DNA of 32,939 nucleotides from positions 1 to 32,939 of the forward strand of contig DASZGG010000244.1 in the NCBI GenBank assembly GCA_035939025.1, in the 5' to 3' direction. The translations under genes and the position numbers were made by a program. Shown piece by piece: positions 1,439 to 27,210 of this stretch (within the stretch, counting starts at the first letter, position 1; every line of letters begins with the position of its first letter). The notes beneath the pieces are model-generated. The model was given only the letters and a program-made list of their open reading frames with translations, was not told where the DNA came from and did no database searches. This DNA comes from Chthoniobacterales bacterium (GTDB lineage Bacteria; Verrucomicrobiota; Verrucomicrobiia; Chthoniobacterales; JAFAMB01).

Positions 1439-1490
1439 TTAACCTGCATCGCCCACAAATTCTGAGAAATTTGTGAGCGATGCAGGTTAA
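1439..1490. repeat. Palindromic hairpin element, copy 1 of 2 (23-nt arms, one mismatch, loop CTGAGA)
   Basis: The sequence reads TTAACCTGCATCGCCCACAAATT-CTGAGA-AATTTGTGAGCGATGCAGGTTAA. It is intergenic between rpsR and rpsA. A second copy lies at 24563-24608. Confidence 0.85.
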
Positions 1491-1531
1491 CTCGATTCCA
1501 CTCAAAAGCCGAGTTGCCTGACCCACAAAAC

Positions 1532-1561
1532 TAAAAAGGCGACCAGGGTGCGGCCGCCTTC
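1532..1561 (-). terminator. Putative intrinsic terminator after rpmG-rpsR
   Basis: In minus-strand sense it reads AAGGCG-G-CC-GCACCCT-GG-T-CGCCTT followed by TTTAG, starting 23 nt downstream of the rpsR stop. The stem is short (6+2 bp with an internal mismatch), so support is moderate. Confidence 0.4.
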
Positions 1562-1583
1562 TGAAATTTATGAGAATAGACTT

Positions 1584-2692: not shown

Positions 2693-3496
2693 TTAGGAAC
2701 TTGCGCTCGAGTACCGATTTAGAGCGAATCGCCAAAGGATTCTGGAAGCCAAAAGCATCAGAGCCGAAGCGAGCAGGAGATGGCAAATCAGCCACCAGGG
2801 AGTCGCTGAGGAATTCATCAACAGGCGGGCGGGGACATTGGTTACGACGATTACGGGAATCAACCAACTGAACACGAATTTGATGAATCCCTTGAAGACG
2901 ACATCGGGATAACGAGCGAGGTTCATGATGCTGTAATAGCCCCAGAGCAGTCCCTGTGTCCGGATGATCCAGAAGCTCACTGTCGAAAGGGCGAACATTA
3001 TTGCGTAATGTATCGTGACCCCGACGCATATCGTAGCCAGATAGAGCACGACCTGACCGAGGCCGGGCATCACGTGCAACCGGTACAATGAATAGATAAC
3101 AATCCCGACGCCCACCAGCGCGTTCACGACGCTGTCGAGGCCGAATTGCCGAAATGAGGTCGTGAACTGCCCATCTATCGGTTGCAACAGGATGAAATCA
3201 AACTTCCCGGTTCGAACGAGTTCGGGCAGGTTGATCAGATTGACATAGAAGAATCCTTGAAAGATTTGGCTGATGATCTGATGGGTTCCGACGAGTAAAA
3301 CCATCTGCCACTTGGTCCAATCGCCGATTTGGTCCACGTGACTGAAAATCACATTAATAAAGACCAGTTGACCCACGAACCAAAGCGATTCAACGACCAT
3401 CCATAAGAGAAAGTTCAGCTTGAAACTCATATCCCGAATGAGGGAATTGCGCAGCATCACCGAATAAACGGCCCGGTATTTCCCCACGGTGGACAT
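2693..3496 (-). CDS. ABC-2 family transporter permease (DUF990-like membrane protein)
   Basis: The protein is multi-pass hydrophobic. It contains YRAVYSVMLRNSLIRDMSFKLNFLLWMVVESLWFVGQLVF... and LPELVRTGKFDFILLQPIDGQF, which resemble ABC-2 permeases. Start is set to ATG 3496 (MSTVGKY...), because upstream codons of the track ORF merely translate the heptamer repeat. No ATPase partner lies in the window. Confidence 0.75.
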   Translation of the reverse strand: MSTVGKYRAVYSVMLRNSLIRDMSFKLNFLLWMVVESLWFVGQLVFINVIFSHVDQIGDWTKWQMVLLVGTHQIISQIFQGFFYVNLINLPELVRTGKFDFILLQPIDGQFTTSFRQFGLDSVVNALVGVGIVIYSLYRLHVMPGLGQVVLYLATICVGVTIHYAIMFALSTVSFWIIRTQGLLWGYYSIMNLARYPDVVFKGFIKFVFSWLIPVIVVTNVPARLLMNSSATPWWLICHLLLASALMLLASRILWRFALNRYSSASS

Positions 3497-3506
3497 CGAG
3501 AGCAAA

Positions 3507-3602
3507 GTTTTGAGTTTTGGGTCTTGAGTTTTGAGTTTTGAGTTTTGCGTGGACATCCGCAGCTTACTCAAAACTCAAAACTCAAAACCCAAAACGCGAA
3601 AC
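3507..3602. repeat. Heptamer-armed hairpin element A: 6 x GTTTTGR, 19-nt loop, 5 x YCAAAAC
   Basis: Left arm 3507-3548 reads GTTTTGA GTTTTGG GTCTTGA GTTTTGA GTTTTGA GTTTTGC. Loop 3549-3567 is GTGGACATCCGCAGCTTAC. Right arm 3568-3602 reads TCAAAAC x3, CCAAAAC, GCGAAAC. The element lies 2 nt from the aspartate aminotransferase stop and 10 nt from the permease ATG. Confidence 0.95.
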
Positions 3603-3604
3603 GG

Positions 3605-4783
3605 TCACAGTGTTCGACAGAATTCTTCGAACCGGTCCATGCCCTTCTTGATGACATCCAGGCTCGTGGCATAGCTGAAGCGTAGGGTCCGATCGTCGCC
3701 GAACGCGATCCCTGGAACCACCGCGACATTAGCCTTGCTAAGAAGCCGGTCGGCGAAGTTCTGGGAGGTGAGCCCAAGCTTACTGATATTGACCAGGACG
3801 TAAAATGCGCCGTTCGGACGGACCACGCTCAAGTGGGGCATTTTGGAAAGTCGCTCGAGCATATATTCGCGGCGGAGATTAAACTCATCGCGCATGTCAG
3901 CCACGCTCTGTTGATCACCTCTGAGCGCAGCGAGCGCCCCCTTCTGGGCGAACGAACAGGCATTCGAAGTGCTGTGGCTCTGAATAGAGTCAATTGCCTT
4001 GGCGATAGGCTCGGGTGCACCCAAATAGCCAATGCGCCAACCGGTCATCGCGTATGATTTGCTAAACCCGTTGACGGTGATCGCGAGGTCGTAATACTCC
4101 TGGCCGAGCGATGCGATGCTAACGTGCCTGGTGTCATCGTATACGAGTTTTTCGTAAATCTCATCGGACAGAATAAGTATTTCCTCTTCTGCGGCTACGT
4201 TTGCCAGAGCTTGCAATTCCTCTTTCGTGTATACCGCTCCGGTCGGGTTTCCGGGGCTGTTCAATATGATCATCTTGGTCCGTGGCGTCATGGCATTTTC
4301 AAACTCCTCGGCGGTGAGCTTCCAGCCATCTTCCTCTTTCGTGTAAACGAACACGGGATCAGCCCCGGCAAGACGAACCATCTCCGGGTAACTCAGCCAG
4401 TAAGGAGTCGGAATGATGACCTCATCGCCGGGTTGACAAGTTGCGACAATGGCGTTGTAGCAAGAATGCTTCGCTCCGTCGCTAATGATGATCTGAGATG
4501 GTTTGTAATCGACGCCGTTGTCGATCAGGAACTTGTCCGCGACGGCCTGGCGAAGGTCTGGAATGCCGGAACTGGGTGTATACTTGGTGAAGCCGGATTC
4601 CAGCGCCGCTATCGCAGCCGTCTTGATGTGCTCGGGAGTGTCAAAGTCCGGCTCACCCGCTCCGAAACTGCAAACATCGATCCCCTCCGATTTCATCGCC
4701 TTGGCTTTGCTATCAATCGAAAGAGTGAGAGATGGAGTTAAACTGGTGGCTCTAGAGGAAAGTTGCATAGGAACTATTTTCAC
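3605..4783 (-). CDS. Class I/II PLP-dependent aminotransferase (aspartate aminotransferase-like)
   Basis: The 392-aa ORF contains GEPDFDTP, NSPGNPTG and the SKSYAMTGWRIGY lysine motif. The track start at 4783 is a GTG. ATG 4768 (MQLSSRA...) is an equally plausible start. Confidence 0.9.
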   Translation of the reverse strand: MKIVPMQLSSRATSLTPSLTLSIDSKAKAMKSEGIDVCSFGAGEPDFDTPEHIKTAAIAALESGFTKYTPSSGIPDLRQAVADKFLIDNGVDYKPSQIIISDGAKHSCYNAIVATCQPGDEVIIPTPYWLSYPEMVRLAGADPVFVYTKEEDGWKLTAEEFENAMTPRTKMIILNSPGNPTGAVYTKEELQALANVAAEEEILILSDEIYEKLVYDDTRHVSIASLGQEYYDLAITVNGFSKSYAMTGWRIGYLGAPEPIAKAIDSIQSHSTSNACSFAQKGALAALRGDQQSVADMRDEFNLRREYMLERLSKMPHLSVVRPNGAFYVLVNISKLGLTSQNFADRLLSKANVAVVPGIAFGDDRTLRFSYATSLDVIKKGMDRFEEFCRTL

Positions 4784-4872
4784 GACTATATGTGCCTCGC
4801 TGTCTTTTCAACCAATGAATTCGAAAGAGGATACTGGGTGGGTGCGAAGCTGGTCGCGCTGGGACCGCTTAT

Positions 4873-13166: not shown

Positions 13167-13265
13167 GTTTTGCGTCTTGCGTTTTGGGTTTTGGGTTTTG
13201 AGTAGGTATCAAATCTGCGGGCTTTCTCACGCAAAATTCAAAACCCAAAACTCAAAACCCAAAAC
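13167..13265. repeat. Heptamer-armed hairpin element B: 5 x GTYTTGN, 29-nt loop, 5 x NCAAAAY
   Basis: Left arm 13167-13201 reads GTTTTGC GTCTTGC GTTTTGG GTTTTGG GTTTTGA. The loop is 13202-13230. Right arm 13231-13265 reads GCAAAAT TCAAAAC CCAAAAC TCAAAAC CCAAAAC. The element starts 4 nt after the uxs stop and ends 3 nt before the coaE ATG. Confidence 0.95.
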
Positions 13266-13268
13266 AGC

Positions 13269-13886
13269 ATGGCCTTGGGCATTGGAATCACAGGAGGCGT
13301 TGCGACTGGCAAGTCGACGGTTGCTCATCGCCTTTTCGAGTTGCTGCGGATTCGTGCGCCGGTCGAACTTTTCAGTTCAGATTTCGAAGCCAGAAGATTG
13401 ACGGATAGCGATTTCGTTGTACAAGAGGAGATTAAAGCGGCCCTTGGAGTTCAAGTATTCGACCCCGAGGGCAATCTTGCCCGAGACCGGTTGCGGGAGT
13501 TGGTGTTCCACGATGCAGCGGCGCGAAAAGCCCTGGAAGCCATTCTCCACCCCCGGATCCGAGAGGCGTGGATTAGCCGGACCAGAGGAGATAGGCTGCT
13601 CCTCGCGGAAATACCTTTACTGTACGAAACCGGGGCCGAACGTTACTTTGATCGAATCATCGTCACTGCTTGCAGTCGTGCCTCGCAAGTCGAACGAATG
13701 GTAGTCGAACGACGTTTAGTGAAAGAACTGGCGGAACAGATAATTCAGACCCAGATGGATCTCGAGGAGAAAATTCGTCGGGCAGATTGGGTCGTGTGGA
13801 CTGATTGTACGCCCCAGATTACCGCTCAACAAGTTAACCTGATATCTCAAGAGGTCATCGAACGATATGGAGGAGCCAGGCGCTGA
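13269..13886 (+). CDS. coaE: Dephospho-CoA kinase
   Basis: It starts MALGIGITGGVATGKSTV (P-loop) and contains ...AEIPLLYETG..., with CoaE-like length of 205 aa. Confidence 0.9.
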   Translation: MALGIGITGGVATGKSTVAHRLFELLRIRAPVELFSSDFEARRLTDSDFVVQEEIKAALGVQVFDPEGNLARDRLRELVFHDAAARKALEAILHPRIREAWISRTRGDRLLLAEIPLLYETGAERYFDRIIVTACSRASQVERMVVERRLVKELAEQIIQTQMDLEEKIRRADWVVWTDCTPQITAQQVNLISQEVIERYGGARR

Positions 13887-15186
13887 ACCGACTGTGTTGC
13901 CAGGTTCAGAATATTTTAGCGAAAACGGAACTGTTCTTGAGCTTGACAGGCTCCATCAACTTACTCACCTCGTCTTGCTTGAGCTCACCCGCCAATTCAA
14001 CCTTCGTGTCTCGCACGAGCGTACTCGGCACCAGTTGATTTTCGATCTTCTTAAGGCCTACTCAAGCCGGGGGATCGCATTAGTTGCCGAAGGAATGCTC
14101 GAAATAGCGAACGAGAGTTATGGGTTTCTTCGTTGGGAACGTTACAATTTTACGCCCTGCGCGGAAGATGTTTACGTGCCGGCGGTGATCCTGAAAAAAT
14201 GGGGCATCCGTCCTGGAAACAAAGTCCGAGGTTACATTCGGGGGCCGAAGGAAAAAGAAAAATTTATGGCCTTGGAGCAGGTCATAAGCATCGAAGGTAT
14301 TCCCTTGGAGTCCTGGACTGAGCCGAAGCTTTTCGATCAGTTGACGGCGCTTTTCCCGGACAAACGAATCCTGCTCGAAAACTCTAAGACCGGGAGTGTT
14401 AGCGCGCGAGCGGTTGACTTAATTGCGCCCTTGGGGCGCGGGCAGCGGGGGCTCATCGTCGCAGCGCCCCGAACTGGAAAGACGATTTTGCTAAAGGATA
14501 TTGCGCTGGCGATCCGCGCGAATTCGCCTGATGTTCACCTGATTCTCTTATTGGTGGACGAACGCCCTGAAGAGGTGACAGATCTTGAGCAATGCCTGGA
14601 TTGCGAAATTTTTAGCTCAACGTTCGACGAAAGTCCGACGCGCCACGTTCAAGTAGCCGAACTGGTGAGTGAGCGGGCGAAACGTCTGGTGGAACTCAAG
14701 AAGGATGTGGTCATCCTTCTCGACAGCATTACCCGGCTGGCGCGCGGCTATAACGCGCTTCAACCCGGAAAAGGCCGGATAATGTCCGGCGGTGTTGAGG
14801 CCAAAGCTTTGTTGAAGCCTAAACGTTTCTTCGGGGCTGCGCGAAATTGTGAGGAAGGAGGCAGTCTGACGATTTTAGCGACCGCCCTGATCGATACCGA
14901 AAGTCGTATGGATGAGGTCATTTTCGAGGAATTCAAAGGAACTGGTAACATGGAGTTGCATCTGGATCGGACGTTGGTCGAGAAGCGAATCTATCCGGCA
15001 ATTCATATTCTGAAATCAGGAACGCGCCGCGATGACTTACTGTATCATCCCGACGAATTTGAGCGTGTCACGCTGCTGCGAAAGAAGCTCGCGCAATTGC
15101 CGGCGCTCGAGGCGATGGAAGTATTCTTGAACACCTTGAAAGCAACCAGAACCAACGCGGAACTATTGCTGACGGCACTTCGATGA
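13867..15186 (+). CDS. rho: Transcription termination factor Rho
   Basis: The 439-aa ORF contains [14 protein letters not shown], the [24 protein letters not shown] Walker A region, [10 protein letters not shown] and [22 protein letters not shown]. It overlaps coaE by 20 nt. Confidence 0.95.
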
Positions 15187-19131: not shown

Positions 19132-19908
19132 ATGAGCTCAAAACCCCTCGAAGGAAAAGTCGGCGTTGTATTCGGCGTGGCGAACAAGCGCAGTATAGCC
19201 TGGGCGATCGCTCAGGCTTGGTCGTCTGCGGGCGCGAAGTTAATTTTCAATTATCAAGGCGAGCGCTTGAAAGAAAACGTCGAAGATCTGGTCTCGACTT
19301 TTGGATCGGATGTCCCCCTTTACGGTTGTGATGTGACCAGCGATGCGGAGATCTCTCAATTTTTTCAGCGTGTTCGCAACGATACCGACCGGATTGACCT
19401 CATGTTGCACTCGGTCGCTTTTGCGCCCAGGGAAGCGTTGGAAGGAGACTTTCTCAGCACCTCACGTGAAGCCTTTCTTTTAGCTCACAACATTAGTGCC
19501 TACTCTCTTCTTGGACTTGCCAGGGAAGCCACTTCATTGATGACGAACGGAGGGAGTATAATTGCGATGACCTACTATGGCTCCGAAAAGGTGGTTCCAC
19601 ACTACAACGTCATGGGAGTTGCGAAAGCCAGCCTCGAGGCCACGACGCGCTATCTGGCGTACGATCTAGGTCCAAGAAAGATTCGAGTGAACTGCATCAG
19701 TGCAGGTCCGGTGCAAACTCTTTCCGCCCGTGGAATAGCCGGTTTCACTACCATGCTCAAACACTACCAGGAACATGCGCCTCTTAGACGAAGTTGCGAC
19801 CCGGCCGAGCTTGGGCACACAGGGGTCTTTCTGGCAAGCGACGGTGCATCCGCGATTACCGGCCAGGTCATATACGTCGATGGCGGATATCAGATCATGG
19901 GGATGTGA
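19132..19908 (+). CDS. fabI: Enoyl-[acyl-carrier-protein] reductase (NADH), FabI type
   Basis: The 258-aa ORF contains GKVGVVFGVANKRSIAW, HSVAFAP, YNVMGVAKASLE (Tyr/Lys catalytic pair) and ISAGP. Confidence 0.9.
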   Translation: MSSKPLEGKVGVVFGVANKRSIAWAIAQAWSSAGAKLIFNYQGERLKENVEDLVSTFGSDVPLYGCDVTSDAEISQFFQRVRNDTDRIDLMLHSVAFAPREALEGDFLSTSREAFLLAHNISAYSLLGLAREATSLMTNGGSIIAMTYYGSEKVVPHYNVMGVAKASLEATTRYLAYDLGPRKIRVNCISAGPVQTLSARGIAGFTTMLKHYQEHAPLRRSCDPAELGHTGVFLASDGASAITGQVIYVDGGYQIMGM

Positions 19909-20040
19909 AATTGAGTTTTGGGTTTTGAGTTTCGGGTTTTGGGTTTTGAGTTTTGCGTGGGCTACAGGTAGCTAGGCGAGCGCCTTTCGACGACCGACTC
20001 AAAACTCAAAACTCAAAACGCCAAACTCAAAACCCAATTT
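19908..20040. repeat. Heptamer-armed hairpin element C: 6 x GTTTYGR (plus degenerate outer unit), 42-nt loop, 5 x NCAAAAC (plus outer unit)
   Basis: Left arm 19915-19956 reads GTTTTGG GTTTTGA GTTTCGG GTTTTGG GTTTTGA GTTTTGC. Right arm 19999-20033 reads TCAAAAC x3, GCCAAAC, TCAAAAC. The outer AAATTG (19908-19913) pairs with CAATTT (20035-20040). The element runs from the last base of the fabI stop codon to 3 nt before the next ATG. Confidence 0.95.
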
Positions 20041-21416: not shown

Positions 21417-21534
21417 AAGAATTCAAGAATTCAAGAATTCAAGAAGAGCCAACAGTCTCGCGCCGAGTTTCACATCGCAGCATTCCTGGCTTCTTGAATT
21501 CTTCAGTACTGAGTACTTGAGTGCTTGAATGCTT
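21417..21534. repeat. Octamer-armed hairpin element D: 3 x AAGAATTC, ~37-nt loop, 5 degenerate GAATTCTT units
   Basis: AAGAATTC occurs three times at 21417-21440, followed by AAGAAG. The right arm from 21496 reads GAATTCTT CAGTACT GAGTACTT GAGTGCTT GAATGCTT. A perfect 14-bp stem joins 21433-21446 and 21490-21503. The element sits between convergent glcD-like and rnc stops. Confidence 0.9.
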
Positions 21535-22348
21535 ATCCGCCTGGCGGTGCGGATGGCTCATCGACCGGCTTTTTTCGTCGTGGACGCTTTGCGGCCGGTG
21601 ATTTCGTTTTGGTCCCGGGTTCCTCTGATGGCACAGCCACAGCCTCGGGCTCCGTATTTGCGGGCTTGATTTCCCAGATCTTCGACTTCAGCGCAGAGAG
21701 AGCTGCGGCTGTTTCCGCCTGTTTCTTGCTCGATCCTTCACCGGAACCGAGCTCGAGGTTGTCCCAGATCACTTTTGCAACAAATAATTTTTGATGTTCT
21801 GGGCCGGTCTGGGAGACTATTTCGTAGTTTGGGCTTTTTGGCGAGATTGCTTGGAGAATCTCCTGAAGCTGCCCTTTCGGATTCACCTCGAGGGGTTGGT
21901 GTGTGAGCCGTTGGATATCCTGAAGGGCCTCATCCAACACAAAACGCCGGACCACCTCGATATTGCTATCGAGATACATCGCGCCGACAAGAGCTTCGAA
22001 AGCGTCTGCCAGAATGGAGGCACGTTGGCGTCCGCCGCTTGCTTCTTCACCCCGTCCCATCATCAGGTAGGTGCCTAACCCGATGCTGATGGCGTGGACT
22101 TTCAAACCCTCGCGGGAAACGAGCCGAGAACGCAATTTTGTCAGTTGTCCTTCGCTAAAATGCGGAAACAAGCGGAAAAGATGTTCCGTAAAGATGACTT
22201 GGAGAACCGCGTCACCGAGAAACTCGAGACGTTGATTATCGAAATGATGTCGTTGCGTCTCGTGGCCGAGGCTCGGATGTGTCAAAGCCTCGGCCAGGAG
22301 AAGCGAATTTCGGAATTTGTATCCGATTCGTTGCTCTAGGGGGTTCAT
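21533..22348 (-). CDS. rnc: Ribonuclease III with a ~48-aa Pro/Lys-rich C-terminal tail
   Basis: It reads MNPLEQRIGYKFRNSLLLAEALTHPS...NQRLEFLGDAVL (RNase III signature), then ...ADAFEALVGAMYLD and a dsRBD. The track start at 22396 is a GTG, so I prefer ATG 22348. Confidence 0.9.
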   Translation of the reverse strand: MNPLEQRIGYKFRNSLLLAEALTHPSLGHETQRHHFDNQRLEFLGDAVLQVIFTEHLFRLFPHFSEGQLTKLRSRLVSREGLKVHAISIGLGTYLMMGRGEEASGGRQRASILADAFEALVGAMYLDSNIEVVRRFVLDEALQDIQRLTHQPLEVNPKGQLQEILQAISPKSPNYEIVSQTGPEHQKLFVAKVIWDNLELGSGEGSSKKQAETAAALSALKSKIWEIKPANTEPEAVAVPSEEPGTKTKSPAAKRPRRKKPVDEPSAPPGG

Positions 22349-22458
22349 CAATGAGTTGTCCTGGAATCCTGTCACAGTACAAGAATGAACAATCACTCAA
22401 TGCTTCATGCATGAGTTAGACCGCCTAGAAACCCTAACTCCGGCCGTCTGTCAACCGA

Positions 22459-24089: not shown

Positions 24090-24563
24090 GTGCGCTTCCG
24101 TTTGAATTTTCTCCGCGAATCAGTATATACCCGTTCAGTGCCTGCTTTTCCGGTTTCAGAGAGAAAGGCGAGAGCTTTGCGCGAGCGGCTAAACGCCCTT
24201 CAATGTTCAGAAAAAGACCTTGAGGAGAGTTTCTTCCAGCGCTCCGGCGTCGAGTTACGGCATCGACCGACCGGGGTTCGGATCCGCTGCTCTGAGCAAC
24301 GTTGCCAAATCTTGAACAGGTTCCTCGCTCGCCGAATGTTGGCCGACGAACTCGAAGCGCGCCTCCAGAATAAGACTCGTCATGAGGTTAAAGCTGAGAG
24401 AATCAGGGAAGCAAAAGGTAAACTAAAGTGCCCGAGAATAACCGAGCGCCTCGACCAGTTCGCGTTGCGCCCGTTGGCTCGAGCCGGTCAACAGTCGGCG
24501 CCCAAGGAGCTCGGAAAATTGTTGGCCCAGCTCGAGTATCTTGGGACGGATAAAGCTCCTTAG
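24090..24563 (+). CDS. RF-1 (class I release factor / ArfB-like) domain protein lacking the GGQ loop
   Basis: ...SEKDLEESFFQRSG-VELRHRPTGVRIRCSEQRCQILNRFLARRML... matches the RF-1 domain on both sides of where GGQ should be. In-frame GTG 24138 (VPAFPVSERK...) is a plausible alternative start. Confidence 0.65.
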   Translation: MRFRLNFLRESVYTRSVPAFPVSERKARALRERLNALQCSEKDLEESFFQRSGVELRHRPTGVRIRCSEQRCQILNRFLARRMLADELEARLQNKTRHEVKAERIREAKGKLKCPRITERLDQFALRPLARAGQQSAPKELGKLLAQLEYLGTDKAP

Positions 24564-24608
24564 CCTGCATCGGTCACAAATCCTGAGAGATTTGTGACCG
24601 ATGCAGGC
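24563..24608. repeat. Palindromic hairpin element, copy 2 of 2 (20-nt perfect arms, loop CTGAGA)
   Basis: It reads GCCTGCATCGGTCACAAATC-CTGAGA-GATTTGTGACCGATGCAGGC and starts on the last base of the upstream TAG stop codon. Confidence 0.9.
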
Positions 24609-24748: not shown

Positions 24749-25084
24749 CTAAATCATAGCGCTTTTCAGGGTCTGTGCCTGTTTAAGGGCTGGTGAGAGC
24801 TTTGAGACTTTCTGTCGCATCACCTTGCCAGACTTGAACTTCACGGTAGCTCGAGGCGGGATCTTAAAGTTGCTCCCGGGTTGATTGGGATTCCGGCCAA
24901 CCCGTTCCTTAGTCAGTCGAACCTCAAATATCCCAAAATTCCGTAACTCAACGTCATCTCCACGCGCCAAGCTATCAGTGATCAAATCGAGTGTTCTCTG
25001 GACTACTTCGAACACTTGATGTTGCACGAGGCCGGTCTCGTTACTGATCTTTACAACAATATCCCGTTTTGTCAGGTTAGCCAT
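24749..25084 (-). CDS. HU/IHF-family DNA-binding protein
   Basis: It reads MANLTKRDIVVKISNETGL...VELRNFGIFEVRLTKERVGRNPNQPGSNFKIPPRATVKFKSGK, with the characteristic beta-arm RNP...P motif. AAAGGAG lies 5 nt upstream of ATG 25084. The longer track ORF start is not supported. Confidence 0.9.
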   Translation of the reverse strand: MANLTKRDIVVKISNETGLVQHQVFEVVQRTLDLITDSLARGDDVELRNFGIFEVRLTKERVGRNPNQPGSNFKIPPRATVKFKSGKVMRQKVSKLSPALKQAQTLKSAMI

Positions 25085-25236
25085 CAAGACTCCTTTCAAA
25101 ATGTCCGGATTTTTATGGCACTCACGGTGGCCTATTTCCGCCAGCAACGGTGCAGCAAAAGTCCGACGCTGAGAGTTTTCCGAACTATCGACGAGAATGC
25201 AAATGAGGCAAGGACTTAGTGGACCATATTGTTCCA

Positions 25237-26166
25237 TTACGTCGTTGTCTCATTTGCATTCTCACCGAGCACTTCAGCCGAGGTCCTGAAGTGCATCTTC
25301 GCAATAGTGCGCAAAGCCTCGCGGCCAACTTTTTCGATGACGGCCCGGGCGGCGGATTTGACCGCCCCTGAAACCCCTTTCGGAAGGATAATTCCCAGTT
25401 GTTCGCCGCGCGTATCCAACCACCGGACAAATTTGTCTCGGGCTAGAATTGACGCAGCCGCGACGGCGACATCCGATTCTGCTTTGGTGCGTTGATCGAT
25501 CTGGATTTGCCTTCCTTGTTTCAAAAGCGCGTTTCGGATCACTCTTTCGTTAGCGAACTTATCGGAAAGCGACCTATTGCAGTCCGGTCTTTGCATCAGG
25601 AGATTCTCTATTACGCGGGCGTGTCCCCAGGCTAACAGATCATTGAGGTTCGCGAGTTTTTCGTAGAGCGAATTGTATTTCTCGGGTCCGATAAGGACGA
25701 CATTGGCGGCCAAACCAGAGGTTCTGAGAATTCCATCTGCGAGCTGTCGAATTCTTTTATCCGAGCCGATTCTCTTGCTGTCCATTACTCCGAGAGAAAG
25801 CAGGTGGCGCGCGATCTCGCGTTCCACATAAACGCCGGCGATGACAAGTGGGCCGAAGAAATCCCCTTTCCCACTCTCGTCGATGCCGAAATGCGGTTCG
25901 AACATCTCCGGTTGTAACACTTCCTCATACCCGATTCGAGCCTCCTTCAGGATTTCCGGCTCGAGATAAAACCGGACAAATTCTTCTGTGTCTTTCCCTT
26001 GAATGACTACTTTTGGGCCCTTTTCGTAGACGGCGATCGATAGTTTTGCTTTTTGCGCAAAGAAGATCGTGTAAGGTCGAACGACGAACTCGAAGCCTTG
26101 GTCTTGCAAGAGAATTCTGAGGGCTTCTGCTTGCAAAGGCGTGATGGCTATCGTGTAGGAGTTCAC
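25237..26166 (-). CDS. rnhC: Ribonuclease HIII
   Basis: It contains the GIDESGKGDFFGPLVIAGV catalytic motif. An N-terminal TBP-like domain (NSYTIAITPLQAEALRILLQDQGFEF...KVVIQGKDT) aligns from residue 1 of remembered Chlamydia and Bacillus RNase HIII. Start is assigned to in-frame GTG 26166. The 111 upstream codons of the track ORF run antisense through mutY. Confidence 0.8.
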   Translation of the reverse strand: MNSYTIAITPLQAEALRILLQDQGFEFVVRPYTIFFAQKAKLSIAVYEKGPKVVIQGKDTEEFVRFYLEPEILKEARIGYEEVLQPEMFEPHFGIDESGKGDFFGPLVIAGVYVEREIARHLLSLGVMDSKRIGSDKRIRQLADGILRTSGLAANVVLIGPEKYNSLYEKLANLNDLLAWGHARVIENLLMQRPDCNRSLSDKFANERVIRNALLKQGRQIQIDQRTKAESDVAVAAASILARDKFVRWLDTRGEQLGIILPKGVSGAVKSAARAVIEKVGREALRTIAKMHFRTSAEVLGENANETTT

Positions 26167-26178
26167 GGGTGCAAAAGG

Positions 26179-27210
26179 ATGGAACAGAATCTCGTTGAAA
26201 GCACGGAGTTTCGCACCGCGCTGGTCGACTGGTTTAAGCATCAAGGCCGCAAATTGCCGTGGCGCGAAACTGCGGATCCGTATGCGATCCTCGTCTCGGA
26301 GCTCATGCTCCAACAGACGCAGGTGAGAACGGTTCTGTCCTATTACCCGCGCTGGTTTGAGCGATTCCCGACGATCCGCGACTTGGCGAACGCCCGCGAA
26401 GCCGAAGTTCTTCACGCCTGGCAAGGGCTCGGATACTACAATCGGGCCCGGAATCTTCACAGGTGCGCGAAGATTATCGTGACCGAGTTGAACGGACACT
26501 TACCATCTTCGGTTGACGACTTGGTGAAGCTTCCAGGGATCGGACGATACACCGCAGGTGCGATCGTATGCTTTGCTTTCGACCAACCCGCCCCGATTGT
26601 GGATGGAAATATCGCACGAGCCGTGAGCCGGCTTTTAAACTTGCAGGAACCGGTGGATCAACCCCGCGGAAGTCGGATCATTTGGGATTCGGCGTTTCGA
26701 TACGTCCAGGGAAACAACAACCCGCGACTCTTGAATTCCGCGTTGATGGAGCTCGGAGCGATGATTTGTCTGCCCCGAAAACCGCTGTGTTTTCTCTGCC
26801 CGGTGCGGTCCTTTTGCCGAGCCCGGGATCCTGACTCTCTCCCGAAGAAAAGAGAGCGGCCAAGAATCGAGAGAAAAAATGAATTCCATTTTTTCGCGCT
26901 GAAGGATGGGAGCGTTTTATTGGAACAGAATCCGGGAAAGCGCTGGCAAGGCTTGTGGACTTTGCCGGCCCTCCCTCCAGATTTCGGATCGGCTCGATCC
27001 GCTGATGCGCGGATCGCTTTTCTAAGTTTGAGTTACCCGATCACGCGGTTCGTGGTTCGTCTGAATGTTTTTCTGAGCGACCCGCCGGCTACGCTTCTCG
27101 ACGGGCAGGCGTGGCATCGATTGGAGTTGCTCGACTGTCTCCCGATGCCGTCGCCACACCGCCGCGCAGTTCAAATGGCGCTGCAAAAGGGTGGGCTGAT
27201 TTCCTCTTGA
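26179..27210 (+). CDS. mutY: A/G-specific adenine DNA glycosylase
   Basis: From [30 protein letters not shown]..., it contains [16 protein letters not shown], a helix-hairpin-helix [12 protein letters not shown], the CxxxxxxCxxCxxxxxC cluster and a NUDIX-like C-terminal domain. The track start at 26053 lies inside rnhC. Confidence 0.9.

Follow-up and report, generated by a model that had tools for sequence, protein, structure and literature searches.

Element A, a Dispersed, Hypervariable Hairpin with Heptamer-Repeat Arms in an Intergenic Spacer of Soil Verrucomicrobiota

Here, we analyzed a 32,939-nt stretch of DNA from a Chthoniobacterales bacterium (Verrucomicrobiota; contig DASZGG010000244.1 of assembly GCA_035939025.1), hereafter called the window, and in particular the repeat element found at its positions 3507–3602 (element A). 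Element A is a dispersed, hypervariable hairpin that belongs to the class of convergent heptamer simple sequence repeat (SSR) pairs, in which a (GTTTTGR)n array and a (YCAAAAC)n array enclose a centre that is specific to each locus. It is a real element, which adds a new unit and new phyla to a known, barely studied kind and does not constitute a new category. In this regard, an earlier note on this DNA, made from the sequence alone, was too strong in holding that the element is not a described family, since convergent pairs of the heptamer GGGAATC are on record in Xanthomonas (PMC4692102); no paper on GTTTTGR or on these lineages was found in the literature. As to what element A does, we lean toward seeing it as a slippage-driven hairpin that would be co-transcribed between two cistrons and would serve as a target of RNase III or of exonucleases rather than as a terminator. 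Most of the weight of this whole package is carried by the identity of the element and the dynamics of its slippage; any specific function carries much less.

Results

Element A Occupies a Whole Spacer between Two Minus-Strand Genes

Read on the plus strand, element A opens with an arm of six tandem GTTTTGN units (3507–3548; GTTTTGA, GTTTTGG, GTCTTGA, GTTTTGA, GTTTTGA, and GTTTTGC), continues with a unique centre of 19 nt (3549–3567; GTGGACATCCGCAGCTTAC), and closes with an arm of five inverted units (3568–3602; TCAAAAC three times, CCAAAAC, and GCGAAAC), which is exactly the sequence that the earlier note had described. Both arrays were recovered with a period of 7 by Tandem Repeats Finder (3506–3547, 6.0 copies, 88% matches; 3566–3595, 4.3 copies, 95% matches), and an inverted-repeat search paired 3507–3543 with 3566–3602 as arms of 37 nt that are 92% complementary, with 22 nt between them. 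The RNA fold reaches −55.2 kcal/mol (z = −11.7) for the sense (minus) strand and −57.9 kcal/mol (z = −9.3) for the plus strand, a fold energy attained by 0 of 200 shuffles. The repeat search and the folds, with z from −9 to −12, agree with the initial description of heptamer arms inverted around a unique centre, of a duplex able to slip in register, and of a spacer that coincides with the element.

Both flanking genes lie on the minus strand, and the spacer between them is filled entirely by element A. Upstream lies a class I/II aminotransferase gene (3605–4783; PF00155, E = 9e-80), whose stop codon (3607–3605) is 2 nt from the element, and downstream a gene for an ABC-2 family permease (2693–3496; PF06182, E = 9e-51), whose ATG (3496–3494) is 10 nt from it and is backed by orthologue alignments beginning at residue 1; the co-directional flanks and the two distances had been correctly read from the start. 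On the sense strand, the second arm is the 5′ GUUUUGN arm, starting 2 nt past the aminotransferase stop, and the first arm is the 3′ NCAAAAC arm, ending 10 nt short of the permease ATG. The gap between the hairpin and this ATG is too short for a promoter and is devoid of a Shine–Dalgarno motif, the 3′ tail after the stem is CA-rich without a U-tract, and a consensus scan of 3300–3800 found neither a terminator nor a promoter at element A.

We also observed a promoter-like motif, TTGGTTGAAAAGAC..N..CA(C)ATRTAGTC, 5′ of the aminotransferase gene at 4784–4872 of the window and in the same spacer of L100–L112 (L numbers designate the loci fetched for comparison), where it is kept in all relatives. 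This motif suggests that the aminotransferase, permease, and DksA-like genes form a transcription unit of their own.

Each Arm Changes Its Number of Units Independently

Each arm gains and loses whole units fast and independently of the other arm, as replication slippage predicts. A comparison of unit numbers between strains, proposed in the earlier note as a check, was run and gave variation at two of the window's copies. On the sense strand, element A has 5 + 6 units in the window, 6 + 6 in L100 (99% amino acid identity), and 3 + 3 in L101 (97%), and its centre stays the same in the L100 and L101 orthologues but for one substitution, despite the differing unit numbers. For element C, ten contigs whose FabI-like protein is identical were compared, and the 5′ arm and the 3′ arm each have 4, 5, or 6 units; these arm lengths combine independently across the contigs around a nearly constant centre with few substitutions. 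Element B, compared in nine contigs, is invariant bar one substitution.

The same independence is seen across 109 copies, gathered from the window and the fetched loci: the arms hold 3–12 units (phylum means 3.3–4.9), and the lengths of the two arms of a copy are uncorrelated (r = −0.06). Nor is the seventh base of the unit mirrored between arms, the match being 56–62% at every register. A mirror-image origin of the arms, by simple palindromic duplication or with frequent correction from arm to arm, was therefore rejected: aligning the arms in register does not improve the match of the seventh-base pattern over shifted alignments.

Hairpins Appear, Change Unit, and Decay at Orthologous Junctions

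Over short evolutionary distances, the hairpins found at one gene junction arise, exchange their unit, and decay. This emerged from a deeper comparison of 12 syntenic loci (84–99% amino acid identity) at the aminotransferase–permease spacer. The arm unit at this spacer is GTTTTGR in the window, L100, and L101, CAGGAGTT in L102, GTTCCGR in L103, and GTAGACA in L110–L112; the arrays of L104–L106 and L109 are mosaic or decayed, and the spacer of L108 measures 29 nt and has no hairpin. The hairpins of this spacer have fold z values from −6.9 to −1.8 among the syntenic loci. The glycogen synthase–aminotransferase spacer is short in the lineage of the window; L103 has a GTTTCGC hairpin there, and L110 and L111 have a (GTTTCGR)8–9 hairpin; the PrmA–aminotransferase spacer holds a hairpin in L102 only.

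Elsewhere in the window, positions 1439–1570 could be compared with positions 282–353 of L020, the genes on either side being about 87% identical. At this place, the window has a CCTGCATCG palindrome and a GC-rich, terminator-like hairpin, and L020 has a GTTTTG heptamer hairpin in their stead; hairpins of different families can therefore stand in for one another at one site. Two hairpins of L102 (2724–2986 and 4162–4341), which lie 1.2 kb apart in the PrmA–aminotransferase and aminotransferase–permease spacers, have CAGGAGTT-type arms in common. Over a stretch of about 45 nt that takes in the non-repeat inner GCAGAATGGA, their arms are about 90% identical; their 130-nt centres are unrelated.

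A Class of Repeat-Armed Hairpins with a G-Rich First Arm

The GTTTTGR unit is not the defining feature, and repeat-armed hairpins form a class rather than one sequence. Indeed, the flanks of the GTTTTG loci contain about 30 further hairpins whose arms are tandem repeats of other units, mostly 7-mers, and an unbiased 425-kb set of orthologous soil loci yielded seven non-redundant repeat-armed hairpins, all seven of period 7, as well as 71 arrays of which 47 have period 7. Some arm pairs are more loosely arranged: in L025 (3320–3497), L063 (2647–2868), L069 (7456–7920), and L048 (7032–7245), GTTTTG arms lie 100–250 nt apart, or several GT arms follow one another before a CA arm, so the class includes longer and composite forms. 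Density can be high as well, with five to six repeat-armed hairpins per 8 kb, built on four to five different heptamer or octamer units, in the 8-kb loci L082 (Ca. Ribeiella danica) and L023 (Bacteroidota KLAP56), and some genomes have a repeat-armed hairpin in nearly every spacer.

The arms follow a fixed order, in that the G-rich version of the unit forms the 5′ arm whichever of the two strands is considered. The GT arm comes first in 109 of 110 GTTTTG hairpins, the lone apparent exception consisting of two adjacent elements. Among 34 other units, the 5′-arm version has more G than C in 26, more C than G in 4, and as many of each in 4 (p = 6e-5); T versus A is unbiased in these units (14:11). 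In Verrucomicrobiota, this G-first, C-second bias extends into the inner stems of the centres. The centres are locus-specific and unrelated between copies even within one genome, and the arms are common to several loci. Stop codons as the cause of the polarity were considered and found not convincing (stops in 16 5′-arm versus 11 3′-arm units, among the other units). Other readings were considered as well: the core sites of integron attC sites do not suit the unit, and Chi-like or 3′-extension (telomerase-like) readings would presumably suit the polarity but not the many units per genome, and are speculation.

Gene Context and the Case for a Terminator

In the 109 copies, whose neighbours were delimited by heuristic gene calls, the elements typically make up the whole spacer, yet they are not restricted to gene 3′ ends. 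All 109 are intergenic. The 84 copies for which both neighbours could be resolved divide into 50 between co-directional, 17 between convergent, and 17 between divergent genes (25 further copies being unresolved), so that a location at gene 3′ ends, stated in the earlier note for all copies of the window, fails as a general rule. Where a gene 3′ end faces an element (96 cases), the median distance is 3 nt and 51 ends lie at 0–10 nt. A GTTTTGA array gives TGA in all three frames over three units, and 26 of the 96 3′ ends use a TGA inside the array as their stop. Where a gene 5′ end faces an element (89 cases), the median distance is 18 nt; 31 lie within 10 nt, usually with no Shine–Dalgarno motif. 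A split ribosome-binding site, with a Shine–Dalgarno motif at the 5′ base of the stem brought to the AUG by folding, applies to element B (GGAGG) and is seen in 4 of 34 tight co-directional cases, and was rejected as a general rule.

This context bears on the proposal that the elements are transcription terminators, bidirectional at convergent genes, or the main 3′-end-forming signal of the upstream gene. Stops at a median of 3 nt from the stem, elements that nearly coincide with the spacer in the 17 convergent pairs, and the L020 element sitting where the window has another palindrome and a terminator-like hairpin would all be in line with it. However, the CA-rich 3′ tail has no U-tract, and the consensus scan returned no terminator at element A; a start codon lies within 10 nt in the window and in 31 of 89 cases, which leaves no space for a promoter; termination at such sites would silence housekeeping genes such as coaE–rho; and 17 copies lie between divergent genes. 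As a class, Rho-independent terminators were rejected because the stem is A/U- and G/U-rich, the centre measures 19–44 nt instead of a 3–8-nt loop, and the tail is again of the wrong kind. We thus hold a terminator to be very improbable.

The GTTTTG Pattern Is Found in Nine Phyla

When one genome of each GTDB species was searched for a strict pattern, (GTTTTGN)2GTTTTG-N15-45-CAAAAC(NCAAAAC)2, 99 stretches matched, in 37 metagenome-assembled genomes (MAGs) of nine phyla, as judged by record titles: Bacteroidota (mainly Saprospiraceae), Chloroflexota, Acidobacteriota, Verrucomicrobiota, Planctomycetota, Cyanobacteriota, Desulfobacterota, Abditibacteriota, and Electryoneota. The local G+C content at these loci ranges from 36 to 71%. 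The seventh base differs by lineage: Chloroflexota, Acidobacteriota, and Cyanobacteriota nearly always have A, Bacteroidota have A or G, and Verrucomicrobiota have A, G, or C. Since the carrier genomes hold many unit families, the sharing of GTTTTGR by nine phyla may partly reflect chance or a compositional preference and is not evidence of transfer; carriage by phages was looked for in IMG/VR viral contigs, which gave 0 matches.

All 99 matches lie in MAGs and none in an isolate genome, a distribution that could evoke an artefact of metagenome assembly or binning. The spread over phyla is not a binning error, as several matches lie on contigs that measure 100 kb to 1 Mb. Moreover, the same elements, with consistent flanks and centres, recur in more than 15 independent metagenome assemblies, which argues that they are not artefacts; they are found in short-read MEGAHIT and SPAdes assemblies as well as in contigs presumed, by their names and sizes, to come from long reads (tig000..., MFD, up to 1 Mb), and they are internal to contigs, between intact conserved genes. 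We consider an artefact next to impossible.

Discussion

Known Relatives of Element A

The exclusion of terminators, repetitive extragenic palindromic (REP) sequences, clustered regularly interspaced short palindromic repeat (CRISPR) arrays, and plain short tandemly repeated repetitive (STRR) sequences, as first put forward for element A, holds in membership tests. No match to Rfam at gathering thresholds was found over the whole window, and a permissive Rfam scan of 3400–3700 returned only sub-threshold matches to generic long hairpins (miRNA precursors). A CRISPR array has direct repeats of 24–48 nt set apart by unique spacers of a similar length, whereas the repeats here are 7 nt long, contiguous, and inverted between arms. 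Cyanobacterial STRR sequences, with units such as CCCCAGT, TTGGTCA, and CAACAGT, form plain direct arrays in heterocystous cyanobacteria, and differ from element A in unit, arrangement, and host alike. More broadly, long SSRs of 5–11 nt, in which heptamers predominate and for which polymerase slippage was proposed, go back to Mrazek 2007 as related in two later papers (PMC4679880, PMC4692102). Element A resembles long SSRs and STRR sequences in being made of heptanucleotide arrays enriched in the non-coding DNA of certain lineages; those are described as plain direct arrays, whereas element A is an inverted pair around a unique centre.

The closest described relatives are the GGGAATC heptamer SSRs of Xanthomonas (Rehm et al. 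2015, PLoS One, PMC4692102), with GGGAATC/GGGGAYT heptamers known from Xanthomonas and Nostoc. These arrays have 2–26 units (most commonly 4) and form 70–75 pairs per genome, each of two nearby convergent arrays on opposite strands that could fold into a stem-loop; they are about 90% intergenic, near open reading frame (ORF) ends, and mostly between co-directional genes, vary in unit number and sequence between related species at the same gene pair, and are transcribed, with a function reported as unknown (PMC4692102). Element A shares their architecture, with tandem 7-nt units in convergent arrays on opposite strands, the G-rich one first, in an intergenic position near ORF ends and with a varying number of units. 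It falls outside the G-quadruplex subclass, as GTTTTGR has no run of at least three G and hence forms no G-quadruplex. Its hosts differ too, being soil Verrucomicrobiota and eight other phyla. With respect to the work on GGGAATC, what is new here is the independent variation of the two arms within species, the replacement of one unit by another at one junction, the G-first rule over about 30 units, and arms shared between loci whose centres are locus-specific.

A single heptamer recurring in distant phyla also has a precedent. The direct heptamers TAACTGA are common to Beggiatoaceae, Cyanobacteria, and Bacteroidetes with no known transfer mechanism (MacGregor 2015, PMC4679880). They are intergenic, lie a few nucleotides from start codons where Shine–Dalgarno motifs are rare, and are missing from the corresponding junction of close relatives; they are oriented to the downstream gene, a single case out of 170 being inverted, and no structure is predicted for them (PMC4679880). 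GTTTTGR resembles them in the sharing of one heptamer across distant phyla, in its intergenic place near start codons, in the rarity of Shine–Dalgarno motifs, and in its absence from orthologous junctions; the GTTTTGR element differs in always being an inverted pair that forms a long duplex.

According to another explanation of element A, the arrays are tandem sites for a conserved single-strand nucleic-acid-binding protein, for instance a cold-shock protein (about 7 nt, U/T-rich), whose binding to the first-made GUUUUGR arm would switch the hairpin and regulate the downstream cistron. The 7-nt unit and its G-flanked U-run resemble the preferred heptanucleotide of Bacillus CspB, GTCTTTG/T. The arm that would be bound is always transcribed first, in line with the polarity, and the recurrence of GTTTTGR in nine phyla is what a universally conserved binder would lead one to expect; Csp, S1, and CsrA have been proposed for TAACTGA repeats (PMC4679880). 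Nonetheless, the same architecture and polarity are found in about 30 unrelated units that are not U-rich, such as CAGTAGA, AATGACG, GGCGTTC, and GGGAATC (PMC4692102), and the seventh base and the number of units drift freely. We accordingly find a binding-site array improbable, a shade less so than a terminator, and both are weaker than an explanation by mobile-element-like or other active copying, to which we return below.

A Possible Route through RNA, and Why It Matters

On our preferred reading of element A as a co-transcribed, slippage-driven hairpin, the element would be transcribed within the aminotransferase–permease operon as part of a polycistronic mRNA, because the permease ATG lies 10 nt past the stem without a promoter. 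Its RNA would fold into an intercistronic duplex of 30–37 bp, at whose base the stop codon (2 nt away) and the AUG (10 nt away) would meet. Such a duplex would be expected to block 3′-to-5′ exonucleases and to serve as a substrate of RNase III. Since the G-rich arm always emerges first, the C-rich arm would never be exposed in untranslated RNA as a loading site for Rho. Changes in unit number would then tune the length of the stem. The hairpin may be of service to the cell, or it may be a by-product of slippage that the cell tolerates.

An experimental model for how elements of this type could work comes from Haemophilus influenzae, where a transcribed heptamer SSR, (ATCTTTC)n, in the hmw 5′-UTR (untranslated region) is one arm of a long RNA hairpin that RNase III cleaves (Rapun-Araiz et al. 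2025, PMC12721329). There, the number of units sets expression, and changes in unit number require both transcription and RNase III (PMC12721329). The hmw hairpin differs in having a single repetitive arm, a pyrimidine-rich arm that comes first, and a single, phase-variable virulence locus, whereas element A is dispersed and repetitive in both arms.

Among the long simple repeats of bacteria, heptamer arrays are the most frequent, and certain lineages abound in them. The independent mutation of arms, the replacement of units at a hairpin that persists, the G-rich arm coming first, and the arms shared between loci make the question they pose a testable one. Because elements lie within operons that contain essential genes, as upstream of coaE–rho, with start codons a few bases from a 30–40-bp duplex and often no Shine–Dalgarno motif, they have a bearing on translation start and mRNA processing in poorly studied phyla. 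They also offer natural variable-number markers for tracking strains in soil metagenomes, and are a likely cause of contig breaks.

What Slippage Leaves Out, and the Alternative of Active Copying

Several observations weigh against this account of element A. Co-transcription, RNase III cleavage, and protection from Rho and exonucleases in this organism are steps that we infer from sequence. Several orthologous spacers have only weak, decayed hairpins (z of about −2) and one has none, which fits a cycle of birth and decay better than a strictly required structure. In the arms, pairing is 93% Watson–Crick, and the mismatches on the sense strand at co-directional pairs comprise 27 of the G:U type and 25 of the A:C type; this lack of asymmetry means that there is no signature of pairing maintained in RNA rather than in DNA. 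At the DNA level, the structure could count just as much, or selection may not have had time to remove mismatches of such recent origin. In addition, one unit dominates unrelated loci of a genome, as in three of the four elements of the window, and the MAG MFD05521.bin.2.45 alone has 25 strict-pattern loci (27 copies by looser criteria). Local slippage alone does not explain the dominance of one unit at many loci or the shared arms of L102, and it leaves the G-first polarity unaccounted for.

These last points suit a non-autonomous mobile element akin to MITEs (miniature inverted-repeat transposable elements) or to REPINs (hairpin-forming REP doublets), in which heptamer arrays bound by a protein would act as terminal inverted repeats and be moved by a distant transposase or a REP-associated tyrosine transposase (RAYT), slippage only adjusting the length of the arms afterwards. 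Such an element would account for many copies at unrelated loci (3 in the 33-kb window, besides the 25 of MFD05521.bin.2.45), for arms common to two L102 hairpins down to their non-repeat inner parts, and for presence and absence at orthologous sites (window 1439–1570 versus L020, L108 versus the rest, and the glycogen synthase– and PrmA–aminotransferase spacers). Oriented transposase sites would likewise give a strict polarity of the ends, and centres of 100–250 nt in some copies would be in keeping with it. Element A and its kin are indeed similar to REP, REPIN, and MITE elements in being short, dispersed, intergenic, and hairpin-forming, often at gene 3′ ends, REP hairpins being known to stabilize upstream mRNA.

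They differ, however, in having no conserved whole sequence, in arms made of variable-number micro-repeats, and in the absence of target-site duplication. The members of a MITE or REPIN family are normally alike over their full length, whereas the centres here are unrelated between copies. REP and REPIN membership, which calls for a conserved imperfect palindrome of 20–40 nt that recurs entire, with doublets around a conserved spacer, was rejected, since only the micro-repeat arms are shared. MITE membership was rejected as well, given unique centres and direct repeats of 4–8 nt at the boundaries that are no commoner than with shuffled partners, hence no target-site duplication above chance. 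Within 2.5 kb of the 109 copies, no transposase, RAYT, or recurrent protein was found (only distant short-chain dehydrogenase [SDR] paralogues and one pair of FabI orthologues recur among the flank proteins, and co-transfer with neighbouring genes was likewise rejected), about 1.2 Mb of fetched loci contained no insertion sequence ending in GTTTTG arms, the window genes checked are all housekeeping genes, IMG/VR viral contigs are free of matches, and the many units of a single genome would need as many cognate enzymes. Overall, we regard a mobile element as rather unlikely, though as the most credible of the rivals.

The dominance of one unit, the shared arms with unique centres, and the strict polarity nevertheless lead us to keep alive, at a low probability, a mobile-element-like process or some other form of active copying. 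At a similarly low level, we entertain the idea that the paired arms are made or copied by a dedicated, still unknown mechanism, which would act on both sides of a locus-specific centre with a fixed strand polarity. Candidate forms might be templated 3′-end synthesis or template switching at a break or a stalled fork in a palindrome, or a transposition that carries arms and not cores. If such a mechanism existed, the hairpins would be a distinct class of genome-shaping elements in at least nine bacterial phyla and not a passive product of slippage.

Other Elements and Genes of the Window

The window is an ordinary stretch of housekeeping chromosome. Its first 1.4 kb are 87% identical to a Verrucomicrobiota MAG, and a soil metagenome contig of 32,989 bp encodes an aminotransferase at 99% identity to that of the window. 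GTTTTGNGTTTTG, with at most one mismatch, has 28 matches in the window against 0.25 expected, and all except two fall within element A and the elements at 13167–13265 and 19908–20040, an excess that supports the early recognition of the latter two as further GTTTTGR copies. Element B (13167–13265; 5 + 5 units, 31-nt centre), whose stem has the GGAGG motif at its 5′ base, separates the stop of an epimerase gene (13163) from the ATG of the CoaE gene (13269). Element C (19908–20040; 6 + 5 units, 44-nt centre) lies between the stop (19908) of the gene for the FabI-like SDR and the ATG (20044) of a gene for an FAD-linked oxidase (GlcD-like). The next start codon is 3–10 nt past the element in all three GTTTTGR copies of the window, with ATG distances of 10, 3, and 10 nt.

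The octamer element at 21417–21534 (element D), announced along with these copies, does exist, but as a decayed relative: the 5′ arm of its AAGAATTC units is perfect, the 3′ arm has diverged, and the fold z is −2.0. It is located between the convergent genes for the FAD-linked oxidase and RNase III, the latter gene, rnc (21533–22396), adjoining it. As for element B, it is placed upstream of the coaE–rho pair, given that rho (13867–15186) lies directly 3′ of coaE with a 20-nt overlap. The proximity of rho to element B and of rnc to element D is probably coincidental, though both enzymes are expected to act on such RNA.

Two further kinds of inverted repeat were noted in passing. At 1439–1490 and 24563–24608, the window carries a second, unrelated hairpin family made of CCTGCATCGNNCACAAAT, a cTGAGA loop, and an inverted copy, with stems of 20–23 bp that are 96–100% complementary and four half-sites against 0.01 expected. 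Both copies begin right after a stop codon, and the family conserves its whole sequence including the loop, like REP elements and unlike the heptamer hairpins. Finally, an inverted repeat at 25188–25268 has 39-nt arms that are 82% complementary and separated by a gap of 3 nt, and it is situated at the junction of the minus-strand ORFs 24749–25237 and 25237–26499, the latter an RNase HII-domain gene.

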